Source: Podarcis pityusensis (lineage: Eukaryota). From it: 64,000 bases of DNA. Of the stretch, positions 25,151 to 64,000 are shown piece by piece. The translations under genes were made by a program, and so were the position numbers. The DNA lies in assembly GCA_964106645.2 (NCBI GenBank), contig OZ067041.1; one strand, written 5' to 3'. Under the pieces are notes generated by a model. It was not told the origin of the DNA and ran no database searches. It saw nothing but the letters and a program-made list of their open reading frames with translations. The first letter of the stretch is position 1. Each line of letters opens with the position of its first letter.

Positions 25151-25918
25151 TAACTAATAAGCAAGTTAGAGAGAAGCCACATGACTTGGTAGAGTGCACA
25201 CAGTGAACCCTTGCTTCATGTGAATTCCTCCCGTGGTCATGTCAAGTGGAATTCCTGTTCTGAACCCCACTGCCATCTAAAGCCAAACTGATGGTCACAA
25301 AAAGCAGAGCTTTTGTACTGATAGTTGCCTCTGTGGAACTTTCTCTTAACTGGAGCCAGCTTTCTCTTAGCATTTAAGGAGCAAATAAAAATGCCTCTTT
25401 TATTTTACCTGAGCTTTGCTTACTGGTTTTAGGTCCTTTACAGTTCTAACTTCATGTTCCATTGTTTGTTTGTATCTGCAGTGTTTATAACTTCTTTTAT
25501 GGCGAAGGGCCAATGATATAAGATATTTATTAAGGTTTTTTTTAAATATTACAGTAAAAATGAAAAAGAAAAGAGAAAAATACAAAATAAAAGCAGTTAA
25601 AAACACACATATTTTCAGTTACTTATTTTCCTTTAACTTGTTTCCCGGACCTCCTCGTACCTCCCTTTTTTGTATTCCACTTCAATTTATTGGTTCAGCA
25701 AATCCTTACCATTAGATTTTAACCCATTTATAACCCTTTTCTTTCATATTCTCTTAAAGCATTACAGCTAGAAACGCTTAATTACTATCCAACATCGTTC
25801 TATCATTCATTAATTTTACAATATTTCTGTAGCAGATAGGTAGCCGTGTTGGTCTGCCATAATCAAAATAAAAAATTCCTTCCAGTAGCACCTTTAAGAC
25901 CAACTAAGTTAGTTCTTG

Positions 25919-25956
25919 GTATGAGCTTTCGTGTGCAAGCACACTTCTTCAGATAC
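25919..25956 (-). ncRNA. Minimal hammerhead ribozyme motif, mirror copy on the minus strand
   Basis: Exact reverse complement of 25971-26008 within the palindrome. Confidence 0.68.
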
Positions 25957-25970
25957 ACTGAGATCTCAGT

Positions 25971-26008
25971 GTATCTGAAGAAGTGTGCTTGCACACGAAA
26001 GCTCATAC
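25971..26008 (+). ncRNA. Minimal type I hammerhead ribozyme motif (PLE type)
   Basis: GTAT-CTGAAGA-A-GTGTGC-TT-GCACAC-GAAA-GC-TC-ATAC: CUGANGA box, helix II, GAAA box, palindromic helix III remnant, UH site, helix I GTAT/ATAC. Confidence 0.68.
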
Positions 26009-26311
26009 CAAGAACTAACTTAGTTGGTCTTAAAGGTGCTACTGGAAGGATTTTTTTATTTAATATTTCTGTAAATAGTCTTTAAATTTCTTCCAGTCTT
26101 CTTCCACCGACTCTTCCCCCTGGTCTCGGATTCTGCCAGTCATTTCTGCCAATTCCATATAGTCCATCACCTTCATCTGCCATTCTTCCAGAGTGGGTAG
26201 ATCTTGTGTCTTCCAATACTTTGCAATGAGTATTCTTGCTGCTGTTGTAGCATACATTAAAAAAGTTCTGTCCTTCTTTGGCACCAATTGGCCAACCATA
26301 CCCAGGAGAAG

Positions 26312-26490
26312 GGCGAAGGGCCAATGAGAGAGCATCTGCTTTGCACGCAAAATATGCCGGCTCAATCCAGGTAGCATTTCCAGGTATGGTTGGGAATATT
26401 CCTTGTCTGAAAACCTGGGAAGCCATTGACACTCAGTGTAGACAATACTGAGCTGGATGGACTAGTGGTGTAGCTTAGTATGTTCCTCTG
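26312..26490 (+). mobile_element. tRNA(Ala)-like SINE, host of the L1-type insertion
   Basis: AGAGCATCTGCTTTGCA...TCAGTGTAGACAATACTGAGCTGGATGGAC; head sequence duplicated as the L1 TSD. Confidence 0.75.
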
Positions 26491-27890
26491 TTTATGAGGT
26501 TTTGATGTTTTATTTTTATTATTTGAGGACTGGAGCTAGGTTGAGTGGACAAATTTGAAATTTAAAAATAAATAATAAACAACAAACATTGTATAAATAC
26601 CTCCAGATGCTGGGTGCAGGACTTTATCTTTGACGGCACATTTCACTCTCTCGGTAAGAAAGACCTGCCAGCTGTGCTGGTGTCTACTTACCAATCTTGC
26701 GGTCTAAACTGGGCTGAAAGTTACCAAACCTGACAGAGCATTGAGTTTAGATTTCAGATAGTTCTGAGAAGGCCAAGGTTTATAAAAACAGAGAAGTGAG
26801 AAGTGAATTACAGCATTCCTGATAGAAGGAGGTTAGGAATAGTTCAGCCTTTCCCAGAAACGCTAGTCCCAATGGGACTTCTATCAACTCTTCTTTGGTC
26901 AGTCTTTGGCCCTACTATTTTTACACTCTAATGCAAAACACTTTACATTTGTTTTAGATTCATAGATTATGTATGTGCCATAGTGGAAAAAGGCTTGAAG
27001 GGGGAGGGGGGGACTCTGATTTGATATTTGCTGCTTAGAACATACATGCAAACATGCAATGTAGAAAAATAATCTTGCTAGAACAGACTCTTCAAGGAAT
27101 TTGGAGGAAATGAAATCTACGTAGTGCATAACATGACAGTGTATTTTTGTCAGCACTCAGGTATTTAGAACTTCAGTGTTATGAAACTTAAACCAGTTAT
27201 GATTCTGTGAGGCTCAAGGAAGTGATAAAAATGGATTTTAAAAAGGAATGTCCAGTCCCCAGGGGAGGTCCCTGCAAGGGATGGATGCTGAACAATAAGC
27301 TGCTGGACACTTTTTTGTTGCATTCTTACTACCAAAAGACTGTGATTTTTTTCATGCCATCCCTAATATAACAAAACAGTCTAAATAATCAAAAGTCAAT
27401 GTTAGCAGTAGCCAAGAAAGGGTAAGAGATTGGAGGGAAAATCAACCTGGGTAGGAAGGAGGAAAAGACAGAGTGAACAGGAATCTTTGTTCCATATTGA
27501 TTTGTTCCATTTTTTCCCCTTCCTAGAAGATACCGCCATGTTATACGAAGTCAACAAAATACATATTGCAGCTTAGGGTGCCCCCTGCCCACCCACCCCA
27601 TTCCACATAAGTCAATGTTGTGTACCGAGAAGGGGAGGGCAAAGTGTAGGGGTGTCGGCACAGTGCAAATGCACCAGCTGAGCAATTCAGATGCTCCTGC
27701 TAGTGCATTTGCACCATACCGACTTTCCAGCTGTCTTACAGCTCTCCCTCCTGGTACGCCACAGCGACTCACCTGCTAGGAAGCTAGCATAGCAACTCTG
27801 CTCCACCCAGCAAACCACTTCTGATCGTTCCTTGGGGCACCTTTGGTTCAGCTAGTTCAGGACTGCCCTAAACTAACTGGCAGCTGCACT

Positions 27891-30815: not shown

Positions 30816-31277
30816 TTGTTGTTCTTTAGTCATTTCCAACTCTTCATGACCCCATGGACCAGAGCACGCCAGGCACTCCTGTCTTCCACTGCCTCCCGCA
30901 GTTTGGTCAGACTCATGTTTGTAGCTTCGAGAACACTGTCCAACCATCTCGTCCTCTGTCGTCCCCTTCTCCTTGTGCCCTCCATCTTTCCCAACATCAG
31001 GGTCTTTTCTAGGGAGTCTTCTCTTCTCATGAGGTGGCCAAAGTATTGGAGCCTCAGCTTCAGGATCTGTCCTTCCAGTGAGCACTCAGGGCTGATTTCC
31101 TTAAGAATGGATAGGTTTGATCTTCTTGCAGTCCATGGGACTCTCAAGAGTCTCCTCCAGCACCAGAATTCAAAAGCATCAATTCTTCGGCGATCAGCCT
31201 TCTATATGGTCCAGCTCTCACTTCCATACATCACTACTGGGAAAACCATAGCTTTTACTATACGGACCTTTGTTGTC
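30816..31277 (-). mobile_element. BovB (RTE clade) LINE, 5'-truncated 3' end
   Basis: ORF 30830-31147 VPWTARRSNLSILKEISPECSLEGQILKLRLQYFGHLMRREDSLEKTLMLGK is the typical BovB C-terminus; (CAA)n tail; probable TSD ATAATTTGTTGT at 30811-30822 and 31313-31324. Confidence 0.93.
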
Positions 31278-44946: not shown

Positions 44947-45090
44947 ATAGCTCAGTTGGTAGAGCATGAGACTCTTAACCTCAGGGCTGTGGGTTTGAGC
45001 CCCACGTTAGGCAAAAAGATTCATGCATTACAGAGGTTTGGACTGGATGACCCTCTTGGTTCCTTTGACTCTACAATCCTATGATTCTAA
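44947..45090 (+). mobile_element. tRNA-Lys(CTT)-derived SINE with CR1 3' tail
   Basis: TAGCTCAGTTGGTAGAGCATGAGACTCTTAACCTCAGGG..GTGGGTTTGAGCCCCACGTT closely follows tRNA-Lys-CTT but lacks the 5' acceptor strand; followed by GGACTGGATGACC...CTATGATTCTA. Confidence 0.82.
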
Positions 45091-48109: not shown

Positions 48110-48620
48110 CCTACTTTTTATTGTGTTTTCATATTACAACAAAAAAGGAGCACATCATGGCGATCTTCTTCTTGGACAATTACATAGTCTAAGAGATGCC
48201 AGTGGTTCTGATGCACAGACTGAGGGTGCCTCCATGATGTTTTAAATTTATATTTTTGTTGAAAGAGTGTGTTGGTAATAGCAAGGTTGTGCATTGCACA
48301 TAGAGTCAGAAGTAAGATTCCGTTCTGGTTGCTGTTGCCAATTCCTTCTTTCCCAATACTTCCAGGCCACAGATTAAAATCACCCAGGAAATTAATTTTA
48401 TCTTCCTCATGTGTCTCTGATAGGATGGCATCCAGCTTTTCAGGATGAGCAGAGTGGATCGTAAATAGGACTGACTGCTCAGTCATGGATACAGCTGTTG
48501 AGCTACTCAACTGCCTCATTCCTTGAGTCAGAATGACTGAATCTGTATCCACCACCCGTGTGCCGTCCATGACTAGGGGCTTTTAGATTTCATGGAACTG
48601 CCCCCGTTACCATTTGTCGA
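48110..48620 (-). mobile_element. RTE-clade LINE 5' fragment (APE endonuclease), degenerate
   Basis: ORF 48118-48570 has FLGDFN, GIGNSNQNGILLLTLC, LAITNTLF, TSWRHP and WHLLDYVIV. Confidence 0.8.
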
Positions 48621-55366: not shown

Positions 55367-55444
55367 CACCAGCAGACGTTTCTGAATCAGCTAAGAGAGA
55401 TCACTGGCATCAATGACACCCAAGTACTGCAGCAAGCCTTGAAG
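55367..55444 (+). CDS. USP25: USP25 coding exon 2, [26 protein letters not shown] (UBA domain, first part)
   Basis: Acceptor ctttttcatttttcag, donor GTATGG; 78 nt, phase 0-0; peptide near-identical to USP25. Confidence 0.96.
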
Positions 55445-55634: not shown

Positions 55635-55681
55635 ATCTGGTGAATGCCTATATGTACTAGACATATAGGCATTCACCAGAT
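55635..55681. repeat. Perfect 21-bp inverted repeat with 5-nt spacer
   Basis: ATCTGGTGAATGCCTATATGT-ACTAG-ACATATAGGCATTCACCAGAT. Confidence 0.9.
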
Positions 55682-56989: not shown

Positions 56990-58518
56990 GTAAGTGGTTT
57001 TTTTCTGCGTTACTGAAGTACCAACCAAACTAAATGCTTGGTCAGAAGACCTTGTTGTCACTCCAGTCTGATATTTTATATAAAGTGATTCCTTTATGCC
57101 TATAGATCTTGGAGGTTTTGGTTAAAGTGATTTATTTTTCAAGAAGTTTGTCTTTATTGAAAACACAATAATATAGTAATATAACAGAAAATGAAAGGGA
57201 AACCACGAGGGTCCATCTAGTGCACTTAGCTTTCACCATTTGTGTCTGAAAAACAACATTAATATCTGGTAATTGCGATTTTACTGCCCTGGAAAATTGC
57301 TATCTATACCTCCATCTGCGTACTTTTAGAAATTCCTCCAAATTGGTAATTACTTCAAAATATGAAGCAAGAAAATAATACTCTGATTAGTGAAGCTTAA
57401 CAGTAAAATATCAATCCATATCAAAAAAGCCATGTGATAACTATTTGTGTTTGGAATCCATATGTCCCAGTGCAAGCACATTTAACTTGAGAAGTGTTAC
57501 AGAATCCCAGAAAACTCACAATTTGGCCAAATAACAGTGCATAGATTTGAAATTAAAAGTTAATATATTCTATGCTTAACAAAAGTATGTAGTGTTGAGT
57601 AAGACTAGCGTAACAGTAAATAAGCCTGACCTGTAACATTCATATTTAATGCTAAGTAAACTTGAAGCACCTCACACTATAGATTTCTAAGCATTACACC
57701 CAACCCTTTTGTTAATCTAGACTTGCATTTCATTTATGTGTTCTGTCATGATTGTGACAGGTATGAGAACTCTGGATGCTTCTTTTCCTACTAGTTGGCA
57801 GAAAAACTGGCTGTTCAGGAACAAGGAAAGGGAAAAGTGTATAAGCTTTGGGAAGGCCAATAGGGTTTGTCCTTGGCACATTTTGAAGTTTCTCAATGCT
57901 TAACAATAGATAGTGTTGTCTGATTTGTAATGATAGCGTTCTTGTTAAAATAAAGGAAATGAAAGACTTATTTCCTTAGAACACACCTAGGAGAGAATCA
58001 GACAAGCTCCAAACAGTGTGATGGCAGCTGCTTAAAGCTACCTTGTTTTCCATCTCTAAATACATGAAGCATTCTGTGTGGAAAGCTTATGGTCTGCAGC
58101 ATCTAGTTTTTTTTAGCAACCTAACCAATAGCAGATACTTTTTGAGCAGTTTCGTGGCATGACACTGTTCAGATCACCAGAACCTGCAGATGACTGGCTT
58201 TCCTATGTTAACTATCTTGAACTTTACTGACCACTGTATAATATGATCTGGTCATACATGCATATCCCAACTTATTAGACCAAGATATGCATGAGCTTTG
58301 CACCTGCACATTACATCCTGGTACCGTCCCCTTCCTTCCTTGAGTACTGCAGCTAAAGAGTTTATAGGATAATAAGCTAAAGTTTCCCATTATATCCAAA
58401 CCATAAATCTATAGTTACTAGGTTCTGAACAAGCCTGGTAGTTTGAAATGAGTTTCATGTAATAAGCTGAGCTGCAGCCCAAATTGGACTGATTACCTGG
58501 CTAGATTTTTTTTATATA

Positions 58519-58913
58519 CCGTATTTTTCGCTCTATAAGACACACTTTTCCCTCCTAAAAAGTAAGGGGAAATGTGTGTGCGTCTTATGGAGCGAATGCA
58601 GGCTCCAGTGCTTCAGCGAAAGCAACGCGAAGCCTCCAGAGGCTTCACGTTGCTTTCGCTGAAGCCAGGAGAGCAAGAGGGATCGGTGCGCACCGATCCC
58701 TCTTGCTCTCCTGGCTTCACTTCGCTGGAGAGGTGCTGTGCAGCTTTCCCTCTCTGCGCAGCGCCCTTTCAGTGAAGCGGGAGGAGAAATGGAAGGGGCT
58801 CCGCTTCTCCTGACGCTTCGCTGAAGGGGCGCTGCACAGAGAGGGAGAGAATATTTTTTTTCTTGTTCTCCTCTAAAACTAGGTGCATCTTATGGTCGGG
58901 TGCGTAAATGCGG
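58519..58913. mobile_element. Tc2/pogo-like MITE (CCGTA ends) with three internal hairpins, USP25 intron 3
   Basis: TA-CCGTATTTTTCGCTCTATAAGAC ... AAATGCGG-TA (right TIR partly deleted); GTGCGTCTTATGG subterminal repeats. Confidence 0.82.
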
Positions 58914-59211
58914 TACATGTCGGAAATACTATTTCACTGGTTGTATTGGTTGTATTGGATAATCATTTGAAGTTTCACAAGCCATAGTTTATGAAGTTGT
59001 GGCCACATGCTCCTCCTCTGGTCCCCCCCCCCTTTTCCTTTCTTCCATTGTGTACTGGTTTTCCTTGTGGAGATCATGGCTTGGATTGTCAGGGACATTA
59101 AACCCAAATTCCCCCAAGCCTGTACCATTGTTCTGAAACTAGCACGAGATAAATTGATGCTTTTCATTCTGTTGCATTTTTAATTTTGAGAAACGCAGTT
59201 TTGCATTTCAG

Positions 59212-61670: not shown

Positions 61671-64000
61671 ATAATAATAATAATAATAATAAATTTTATT
61701 TATATCCCGCCCTCCCCAGCCGAAGCCGGGCTCAGGGCGGCTAACAACACTAAAATAGTGCAGCAGTATAAAAACATCATAAGAATTAATTAAAATCAAA
61801 ATTGATGGCAACCATAAACTAAAGTATTGTAAAGATTGCCAAAGGAGGGAGTCAGGCTGCGCCCTGACCAAAGGCCTGGTGGAACAGCTCTGTCTTGCAG
61901 GCCCTGCGGAAAGATGTCAAGTCCTGCAGGGCCCTTGTCTCTTGTGACAGAGCGTTCCACCAGGTTGGAGCCGCAGCCGAAAAAGCCCTGGCTCTGGTTG
62001 AGGCCAACCTAACCTCTCTGTGGCCTGGGACCTTCAATATGTTTTTATTTGAGGACCGTAAGTTCCTCTGTGGGGCATACCAGGAGAGGCGGTCCCGTAG
62101 ATACGAGGGTCCTAGGCCGTATAGGGCTTTGAAGGTTAAAACCAGCACCTTAAACCTGATCCTGTACTCCACCGGGAGCCAGTGCAGCTGGTATAGCACC
62201 GGATGAATGTGATCCCGCAGCGAAGACCCCGTAAGGAGTCTCGCTGCGGCATTCTGCACCCGCTGGAGTTTCTGGGTCAGTCTCAGGGGCAGCCCCACGT
62301 AGAGCGAGTTACAATAATCCAGTCTGGAGGTGACCGTCGCGTGGATCACAGTGGCTAGGTCAGGGCGAGAGAGGTAAGGAGCCAACTGCTTAGCTTGGCG
62401 GAGATGAAAAAATGCCGCCTTTGTTATAGCTGCAATCTGCGCCTCCATGGAGAGGGAGGTATCGAAGATTACACCCAAACTCTTAACGGACGGTGCTGGC
62501 ACTAATTGCACCCCCGCAAGAGATGGGAGTTGCCCCCTCAATCCCATATCGTCCCGTCCCAGCCAGAGGACCTCTGTCTTCGAAGGATTTAACTTCAACC
62601 GGCTCCCACGTAACCATCCAGCCACAGCTTCCAAGCATCTGATCAGTGTATCTGGGGCCGAGTCAGGATGGCCATCCATCAACAGATAGAGTTGGGTGTC
62701 ATCAGCATACTGATGGCAGCCCAGCCCAAAACTCCGGACAAGCTGGGCGAGGGGGCGCATAAAGATGTTAAAAAGCATCGGGGAGAGTATCGCACCCTGG
62801 GGCACTCCACACACCAAGGAGTGGCGGGATGACAGTTCCCCCCCAAGCGCCACCCTCTGTCCCCGACCAGAGAGAAACGAGCGCAGCCATTGAAGGACTG
62901 TGCCCTGGATCCCCACGTCGGCAAGGCGGTGGTCCAGGAGTTCGTGATCGACCATGTCGAAGGCTGCTGACAGGTCTAGAAGAATCAGCAGCCCCGACCC
63001 ACCTCGATCCAGCTGCCTGCGGAGATCATCTGTTAGGGTGACCAGAGCTGTCTCGGTCCCATGACCAGCGCGGAAACCGGACTGGAATGGATCCAGAGCC
63101 GATGTTTCATCCAGAAACCTACCAAGCTGTTCAGCAACCGCTCTCTCAATCACCTTACCCAGGAATGGAAGATTCGAAACTGGGCGGTAATTGGATAGAT
63201 CTAAGGGATCTAATGATGATTTCTTTAAGAGCGGACGCACCACTGCCTCCTTCAGTTCCCCTGGGAATGTCCCGGTGCCAAGGGACAAATTGATGATATC
63301 CCCCAGGGGGGCCCGCACCTCGTCTGGACACGCTCTAATCAGCCAAGACGGGCACGGGTCGAGAGGACAAGTGGTGGGCTTTCCAGCTCGGAGGAGTCTG
63401 TCCACATCGGCTGGGGATATCCGGTCAAAGTGGTCCAATAATGGACCCGAGGACAGTCGAGGGGCCTCCAGTTCCTTTATTGTATCCAAATTGGCAGGGA
63501 GGTCATGGCGGAGCGACAGGACCTTCTCCACAAAAAAGCTCGCAAATGCCTCACAGCTGTGTGTCGAATTGTTATTTAAATTTGGCTGTCCTTCGAGGGA
63601 CGTTAAAGACCGAATTATACTAAATAATTGTGCCGGGCGAGAGCTAGCGGATGCAATGGAGGCCGAGAAGTAGGACTTCTTAGCGGCCTTCACTGCCATC
63701 TCGTAGGTTTTCATAAAAACCCTATAAGATGTTCTTGAGGCTCCGTCACGGGCACCCCGCCATACTCGCTCTAGCCGTCTGAGGTCCCGCTTCATTTTCC
63801 GGAGCTCCTCAGTAAACCAGGGAGCCCGGTTTCTGCGGGGTCGCAGAGGGCGCTTAGGTGCGATCTCATTGATGGCTGCCAGGAGCTGGGTATTCCAGCT
63901 CTCAACAAGCTCAGTCAATGAGTCGCCAGGGGGAGAAAGGTCCCGCAAGGCTTGACGGAATCTATCAGGGTCCATCAGCCTCCGCGGGCGAGCCCAAATC
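61671..64000 (-). mobile_element. Young L2-clade LINE, 3' part, running off the window edge; antisense in USP25 intron 5
   Basis: Uninterrupted RT ORF; 3' UTR ends in an L2-type stem-loop (CCGCCCTGAGCCCGGCTTCGGCTGGGGAGGGCGG) and a (TTA)n tail; CpG-rich. Confidence 0.93.
61852..63975 (-). CDS. L2 ORF2 reverse transcriptase (partial; frame stays open to the window edge)
   Basis: Motifs YRPVSNLPFLGK, FQSGFR, LDLSAAFD, GVPQGAILSP, QYADD, LNPSKT, SRLDYCNS; upstream codons IWARPRRL are also open. Confidence 0.93.
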   Translation of the reverse strand: MDPDRFRQALRDLSPPGDSLTELVESWNTQLLAAINEIAPKRPLRPRRNRAPWFTEELRKMKRDLRRLERVWRGARDGASRTSYRVFMKTYEMAVKAAKKSYFSASIASASSRPAQLFSIIRSLTSLEGQPNLNNNSTHSCEAFASFFVEKVLSLRHDLPANLDTIKELEAPRLSSGPLLDHFDRISPADVDRLLRAGKPTTCPLDPCPSWLIRACPDEVRAPLGDIINLSLGTGTFPGELKEAVVRPLLKKSSLDPLDLSNYRPVSNLPFLGKVIERAVAEQLGRFLDETSALDPFQSGFRAGHGTETALVTLTDDLRRQLDRGGSGLLILLDLSAAFDMVDHELLDHRLADVGIQGTVLQWLRSFLSGRGQRVALGGELSSRHSLVCGVPQGAILSPMLFNIFMRPLAQLVRSFGLGCHQYADDTQLYLLMDGHPDSAPDTLIRCLEAVAGWLRGSRLKLNPSKTEVLWLGRDDMGLRGQLPSLAGVQLVPAPSVKSLGVIFDTSLSMEAQIAAITKAAFFHLRQAKQLAPYLSRPDLATVIHATVTSRLDYCNSLYVGLPLRLTQKLQRVQNAAARLLTGSSLRDHIHPVLYQLHWLPVEYRIRFKVLVLTFKALYGLGPSYLRDRLSWYAPQRNLRSSNKNILKVPGHREVRLASTRARAFSAAAPTWWNALSQETRALQDLTSFRRACKTELFHQAFGQGAA

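Follow-up and report, generated by a model that had tools for sequence, protein, structure and literature searches.

A loopless palindrome with opposed hammerhead motifs in a Podarcis LINE fragment is best read as a one-off Penelope-like insertion stub

At positions 25866-26061 of a 64,000-nt stretch of the Podarcis pityusensis genome (contig OZ067041.1; hereafter the window), two inverted copies of one sequence meet without any spacer, and a hammerhead ribozyme motif lies on each strand. This locus raises the questions of what was inserted there, how the two copies came to be joined head to head, and whether the ribozymes can act. The reading slightly favoured here is a one-off Penelope-like stub, formed by two short runs of reverse transcription from the two nicked target strands, in which the hammerheads are predicted to be inactive passengers.

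The two arms are 98 nt each (25866-25963 and 25964-26061) with a spacer of 0 nt, and their sole mismatch is the pair 25876/26051; both points had been claimed in the first-pass annotation and were confirmed. The scan of the window for arms of at least 14 bp and spacers below 12 revealed three distinct palindromes, among which this one is the longest, the others having arms of 30 and 21 bp. Folded as RNA, the palindrome has a predicted energy of −180.4 kcal/mol (z = −26.5), equalled by none of 200 shuffles. The arms correspond to the 5' part of a terminal repeat, with its sense on the minus strand in the left arm and on the plus strand in the right arm. A perfect 12-bp target site duplication (TSD), also recognized at first pass, is flush with both ends of the insert (25820-25831 and 26062-26073). 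Both copies read AATATTTCTGTA, and the chance of such a repeat at a given position is about 4 × 10−7; with A or T at 10 of its 12 letters, it is a short TSD at an AT-rich site. The 230 bp between the copies include no ORF and no element body. The layout is asymmetric, 132 + 98 bp, with an extra 34 bp (25832-25865, minus strand) attached to the left arm only. This tail is family sequence, and the ATG-opened frame MADQHGYLS on its minus strand may be the start of the parental ORF.

The insertion point can be confirmed independently from the host sequence. The stub sits in a 5'-truncated L1-type LINE fragment on the minus strand (25517-26311, ends approximate), which consists of the ORF2 C-terminus and the 3' UTR and is bordered by a perfect 16-bp TSD of its own (25501-25516 and 26312-26327). 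The stub lies in the last codons of this lacertid ORF2 fragment, four codons short of the end of the frame. The 84-residue piece to the right of the insert matched 22 proteins among 50 candidates, all of them named Podarcis, with the best identity at 93%; several of these proteins are about 1,245 residues long and include Pfam domains of reverse transcriptase (RT) and endonuclease. None of the three ORF pieces searched matched Pfam. For the LINE piece, the PDB search returned one weak match (E 0.9), and the Atlas search returned only unnamed clusters. The best LINE protein match ends ...KDYLQKYCKINEC, and in the window the frame runs ...KDYLQKY on the right side of the insert and ...QKYCKINE* on its left. 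Thus, the frame resumes across the insert as the LINE protein predicts, which confirms where the stub inserted and that the target was duplicated. Paralogues of the host LINE at other loci skip 242 bp at this point with 12 shared letters. The claim that the insert arrived as one unit with a TSD is supported.

These data bear directly on two readings in which the palindrome was not formed by insertion. An assembly or library artefact, in which a read folded back on itself, would be compatible with the fact that none of the pieces listed for two of the sequencing runs surveyed (X1 and X2) shows the exact junction. However, a 12-bp duplication where the sequence rejoins the flank, a one-sided tail of 34 bp and a mismatch between the arms would not result from a folded read, and the LINE frame resuming across the site would be left unexplained; an artefact is thus considered very improbable. 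Comparably improbable is that a longer direct copy was inserted first and became inverted later, when it broke and was repaired. Repair can yield loopless palindromes, but both TSD copies are intact and flush with the insert, and the tail fits the usual form of insertion.

The insertion is likely to be young, as had been proposed. The arms differ at 1 of 98 pairs, a value with the wide range of 0.03-5.7%. The base at 26051 in the right arm is probably the derived one of the mismatch pair, since the left-arm letter is carried by one loose-end consensus of run X5 (at place 25873). A contig from X5, a run of a related species (organism C), links 25517 to 26329, and so the whole LINE fragment is missing at the same site there; in X1 and X2, contigs pass from the flank into the LINE, and the fragment is present. 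Since the host LINE is absent at that site in organism C, the stub appears to be younger than the split from that organism, unless it was brought in within the LINE. The LINE and the stub are a nested, lineage-restricted pair of insertions, which could serve as a marker.

What kind of element left this insert is indicated by its architecture. Endonuclease-positive (EN+) Penelope-like elements are described in the accessible text of PMC3846280 and PMC8557442 as inserting in the form of a head-to-head inverted, 5'-truncated copy with a tail of 30-40 bp, a palindrome at the junction and a TSD; the 30-40-bp tail also appears in the accessible part of PMC11167929. At the present locus, an inverted head-to-head 5'-truncated copy, a tail of 34 bp and a terminal repeat with a minimal hammerhead are all found. 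The insert shape is thus already described for Penelope-like insertions, including the inverted terminal segment suggested at first pass, and the locus is a miniature of that form. No gene for RT or a GIY-YIG endonuclease could be tied to the family, and therefore the membership leans on the architecture and the hammerhead type. On these grounds, a Penelope-like origin, the assignment of the first-pass annotation, is very likely.

The closest described systems share much of this layout. Pen2a_Av of Adineta vaga and other EN+ insertions (PMC3846280, PMC8557442, as far as their accessible text goes) also show an inverted pseudo-LTR (pLTR), a junction palindrome, a tail at one end and a short TSD. 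Unlike the EN+ insertions with an inverted pLTR in the available part of PMC3846280, the present insert includes no ORF or body and has an exactly symmetric, loopless centre, and its TSD is 12 bp compared with 8-10 bp in the A. vaga examples there. With PAc (Poseidon, Anolis carolinensis) as characterized in the accessible sections of PMC11167929, it shares the 30-40-bp tail, the AT-rich target and an ATT beside one inferred nick, as well as the copying of an uncut hammerhead and the lack of an evident primer-template match at the short start site. PAc is probably a different family, because its ORF starts within stem II, where the corresponding frame in the window closes at once. Non-LTR retrozymes (bioRxiv 10.64898/2026.07.22.740005, available part) are likewise non-coding, related to Penelope-like elements and equipped with a type I hammerhead. 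They are head-to-tail tandems with at least two ribozymes on the same strand, whereas the present arms are head to head with one motif per strand, and a retrozyme identity was rejected for that reason. Searches of the supplements of PMC8557442 and PMC11167929 gave no motif of the family, and a consensus could still be published elsewhere. A search of the literature, with many subscription papers beyond its reach, found no publication that treats this lacertid family or names double priming as a cause of inversion.

The hammerhead motif itself was found as the first-pass annotation had written it, at 25971-26008 on the plus strand and mirrored at 25919-25956 on the minus strand, with the predicted cut after C26004, which is position 17. 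The scan for the motif gave two occurrences in the window and none in 100 mononucleotide shuffles, the two being the motif and its own mirror image. The plus-strand motif consists of helix I GTAT/ATAC, the core CTGAAGA, an extra A, helix II GTGTG(CTTG)CACAC, GAAA and a self-complementary GC. CUUG is familiar as a loop of hairpin stems. In place of the 2-nt loop II written at first pass, a stem of 5 bp closed by a CUUG loop of 4 nt is more plausible. The motif has the core and helix pattern of the minimal type I consensus in Fig. S3 of PMC4209133, and it shares with the metazoan Penelope-like hammerheads in the accessible rows of that paper the core, the extra base between 9 and 10.1, the G10.1-C11.1 pair, the self-complementary 15.2/16.2 and the 4-bp helix I. 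The nearest of these rows by eye is that of the turtle Chrysemys picta, from which the motif differs by two pair changes affecting both sides, one each in helices I and II; in the part available, the Chrysemys row carries no mark of linkage to Penelope-like elements. The same source describes pairs of hammerheads on opposite strands 100-700 bp apart. The lizard family is absent from the rows compared, and the motif here differs from those hammerheads in being predicted to be locked in a duplex. A search of Rfam gave 23 matches at E up to 10, with no hammerhead model among them. A microRNA precursor was also considered and rejected, as the hairpin-driven Rfam matches are all below the gathering score. 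Pattern scans for the hammerhead and the tail gave no match in metagenome contigs, prokaryote genomes or viral contigs, a result that is expected for lizard DNA and uninformative.

The surrounding family was surveyed in contigs of public sequencing runs, with four runs (of 24 listed) used for joints and four for the centre, five different runs in all. X1 and X2 cover the region best (0.91 of words). The arms and the tail are very abundant; in X1, X2 and X5, their summed contig depth exceeds that of a single-copy contig by a factor of about 2-3 × 10^4, a measure that differs from copy number and holds only as an order of magnitude. In X1 the depth reaches about 7.8 × 10^5 over 25844-25880, within the tail and the start of the left arm. 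The base at 26004 is T instead of C in about 30% of the summed depth in X1 and X2 and in about 6% in X5, and subfamilies therefore differ at position 17.

Loose ends before 25966 and behind 25961 are present in four of the four runs, and upstream of 25966 the family sequence continues as ...GACTTCTGTT in all four. Since the family continues otherwise, the central GATC (25962-25965) does not belong to the common sequence of the family; a family variant that would match from 25964 onward is suggested by one contig of X11. In the loose-end consensuses of X1 and X2 (agreement 0.76 and 0.72), a TATA box ends 19 nt before the initiator-like TCAGT (25966-25970 in the right arm); the consensus is noisy in X11, and the box was not seen in X5. 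This spacing is close to the usual distance from a TATA box to a transcription start. It suggests that the first bases of the arms roughly coincide with the expected start of the family RNA, an initiator-like site that follows the TATA box at 19 bp. As seen in X1 and X2, the layout resembles that of A. vaga Pen2a, in which TATA, 20 bp and TCACT follow one another in the accessible part of PMC3846280. The TATA box itself lies outside the insert. The drop of depth near the centre was also considered as a clustering of 5' ends and rejected as an edge effect, because a similar taper is seen at the outer edges of the stretch.

Whether the palindrome moves as a unit can be judged from its centre. 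The depth at the centre is 227, 616, 214 and 459 in X1, X2, X5 and X11, respectively, which is 0.027-0.070% of the arm depth. Expressed as single-copy depths, the total at the centre is 5.6 in X1 and 22 in X2, against about 2-3 × 10^4 for the arms. Among the 32 pieces listed, with 2,876 more beyond the listing, 15 cross the centre, each of them with 1-5 gaps; none of these 15 contigs matches the exact junction, and they also differ from one another. None of the crossing pieces has 31 letters on both sides as the match rule asks, and the centre survey detects only junctions near the centre, so that its counts are no sign of a hot spot there. Some of these contigs could be fold-back chimeras of the library. 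Contig sets can drop hairpins, and thus the missing exact junction proves neither an artefact nor uniqueness. Among the 15 joints listed, with 220 more beyond the listing, nine are other junctions of a left arm to a right arm, and five of these nine share 2-4 letters; one of the nine (25933 to 25990, X5) again forms a palindrome without a loop, with TGCA at its centre. These contigs suggest that the family forms many different head-to-head junctions and that the present one exists in at most a handful of copies.

The first-pass annotation had left two options, a one-off inversion product and a family of ribozyme-bearing hairpins with a shared junction. The rare centre and the mutually different junctions favour the former. 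A family of non-autonomous hairpins moving as one unit would agree with the presence of head-to-head junctions within a few bases of the centre in all four runs, and with some X2 contigs of several-fold single-copy depth (153.6 and 105.3 compared with 28). Against it, the junctions near the centre match neither this one nor one another, the depth at the centre is negligible beside that of the arms, and the insert is devoid of a TATA box. MITEs and fold-back elements are characterized by many copies with the same internal junction and by inverted repeats at both termini; the former were not found in the runs surveyed, and, against the latter, the left end has 34 unpaired bp. Very probably, the insert is not copied as a unit, and a mobile hairpin family is correspondingly a quite improbable explanation.

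For the origin of the one-off stub, the following series of events is proposed. In the parental terminal repeat, the RNA would start about 20 bp below the TATA box, at the initiator, as the spacing suggests. A GIY-YIG/RT protein would then nick both target strands, 12 nt apart, at the AT-rich site; the TSD is observed at the locus, and the enzyme is postulated from in-vitro work on PAc. Each 3' end would then serve as the primer for copying from one of two internal positions separated by 34 nt; the locus shows the tail, and two such start sites are known for PAc. Both copies, of about 130 and 96 nt, would pass through the uncut hammerhead to about the first bases of the RNA and be joined head to head there, with 2-4 non-family bases found at the centre. 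Both arms contain both sides of the hammerhead cut site, and hence the template was an uncut RNA. PAc is described in the available sections of PMC11167929 as copying uncut RNA into DNA, as nicking and extending both strands, and as having two internal start sites that delimit the tail. It has a preference for ATT, and a dimeric form is predicted, according to the same part of that source. One of the inferred nicks adjoins ATT on the bottom strand, which counts for little in AT-rich DNA. Joining of the two cDNAs into a palindrome is not demonstrated in the accessible text of PMC11167929.

A comparable process is the twin priming of L1, in which the two target ends prime copying and an inversion inside the TSD results. 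Both products are enclosed by a TSD, but the pieces of L1 are different parts of the RNA, whereas here the same part was copied twice, leading to a palindrome.

The main rival to double priming is single priming followed by fold-back, in which a cDNA started at the tail reaches the 5' end of the RNA, then folds over and serves as its own template, and cutting or capture of the second end falls short by 34 nt. The parent and the inert outcome are the same, and the route alone differs. The exact symmetry of the centre speaks for fold-back: both arms stop at one and the same base, and the central non-family letters are common to the two, a pattern that self-copying on one strand explains more easily than double priming does. 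The short letters shared at five of the nine arm-to-arm joints listed and the loopless palindrome on TGCA in X5 agree with it as well, and in their accessible parts PMC3846280 interprets junction palindromes as self-priming and PMC8557442 has the tail produced by endonuclease resolution. On the other hand, a hairpin needs a loop, and a 4-nt loop is palindromic by chance in 1 of 16 cases. The tail would need a separate cause under fold-back, while the PAc data in the available part of PMC11167929 link it to two RT start sites with both strands extended; short shared letters would fit a joining of two cDNAs or library chimeras equally. A joint from 25858 to 25971 was set aside as an argument for two cDNAs, as the letters between its sides suggest a difference between subfamilies. 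On balance, double priming is preferred with modest confidence, and fold-back is a less likely route that still deserves serious weight.

If the stub arose by double priming, or by fold-back, the consequence for the ribozyme is predicted to be the same. The arms are head to head, and so in RNA that reads through from either flank the antisense arm precedes the sense arm; the resulting 98-bp duplex is predicted to block the hammerhead fold. This agrees with the sequestration proposed at first pass: in five of five folds with at least 24 nt of the left arm, the predicted pairing probability of helix II was 0.000. RNAs of a lone arm (n = 3) gave 0.14-0.26 for helix II in the fold prediction, and helix I pairing was at most 0.04 in all folded RNAs, the lone arm included. 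The accompanying idea of a transcript that starts near the centre and exposes the ribozyme is unlikely, with the family TATA box upstream of the copied part and outside the insert. The hammerheads are on opposite strands, and no single transcript can therefore include the two copies that a dimer needs. A fold of two copies gave intermolecular pairing of helix II instead of the dimer hammerhead, and this approach was dropped, as fold programs model hammerheads poorly. Minimal hammerheads that have been published cut weakly, as dimers or, in the accessible text of PMC11167929, with the help of a protein. No ribozyme activity is predicted from the locus, and the stub is most likely an ordinary, inert passenger.

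A role of the hairpin or the ribozyme for the host, such as a source of small RNAs against the family or a regulator of USP25, was also weighed. Transcription would give a near-perfect duplex of 98 bp, and the site is about 13 kb upstream of the start of USP25. However, the host LINE fragment is lineage-restricted, being missing at the same site in organism C, and no gene or promoter was found over the insert within the window. Such a role is regarded as the least probable of the explanations considered.

As a single locus, the stub matters little; it is a known form of insertion in miniature, lies beyond any gene found in the window and is probably inert. The family may be of more value. In its available part, PMC8557442 calls the formation of the inverted ends and tails of Penelope-like elements still 'undefined', and the accessible sections of PMC11167929 leave the later integration steps unvalidated. 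A young and very abundant lizard family with many different head-to-head junctions provides a large natural sample for deciding between double priming and fold-back. It is tentatively suggested, at somewhat less than even confidence, that such stubs are complete records of Penelope integration, in which an RT-endonuclease dimer, working from both ends of the target, copies the initial 96 and 130 nt of a single uncut RNA, and the two products are sealed where the RNA starts. If this is true, the RNA start and the two positions at which RT begins would be mapped in vivo by the thousands of family copies in a lacertid genome, which would settle the origin of the inverted pLTRs and tails. Scans of reptile genomes for hairpins or ribozymes will keep meeting such stubs, and caution is needed in their interpretation.

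Several other features were recognized in the window. The peptide of USP25 exon 2 (55367-55444) matches PDB 2MUX (E 2 × 10−11), and the likely first coding exon of USP25 (39296) falls within CpG-rich sequence at 38-40 kb. A perfect 21-bp inverted repeat with a 5-nt loop (55635-55681) follows exon 2 at a distance of about 190 bp downstream. At about 58516-58915, several hairpins stand in a row, including a perfect loopless palindrome with 30-bp arms (58660-58719) and inverted pairs of 27 bp and 50 bp; we take this element to resemble a non-autonomous DNA transposon. An inverted repeat of 25 bp at 27654-27723 (84% paired, 20-nt spacer) is possibly a small MITE relic. The partial tRNA match at 44948-45005 is above the Rfam threshold and is probably the head of a tRNA-derived SINE. 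Two open frames on the minus strand (30830-31201 and 48118-48582) gave no Pfam match; they look like LINE fragments, resembling an RTE/BovB-type RT end and a piece of an endonuclease. The region 62001-64000 is CpG-rich (GC 0.55, CpG ratio 0.68) and is likely a young repeat within a USP25 intron.
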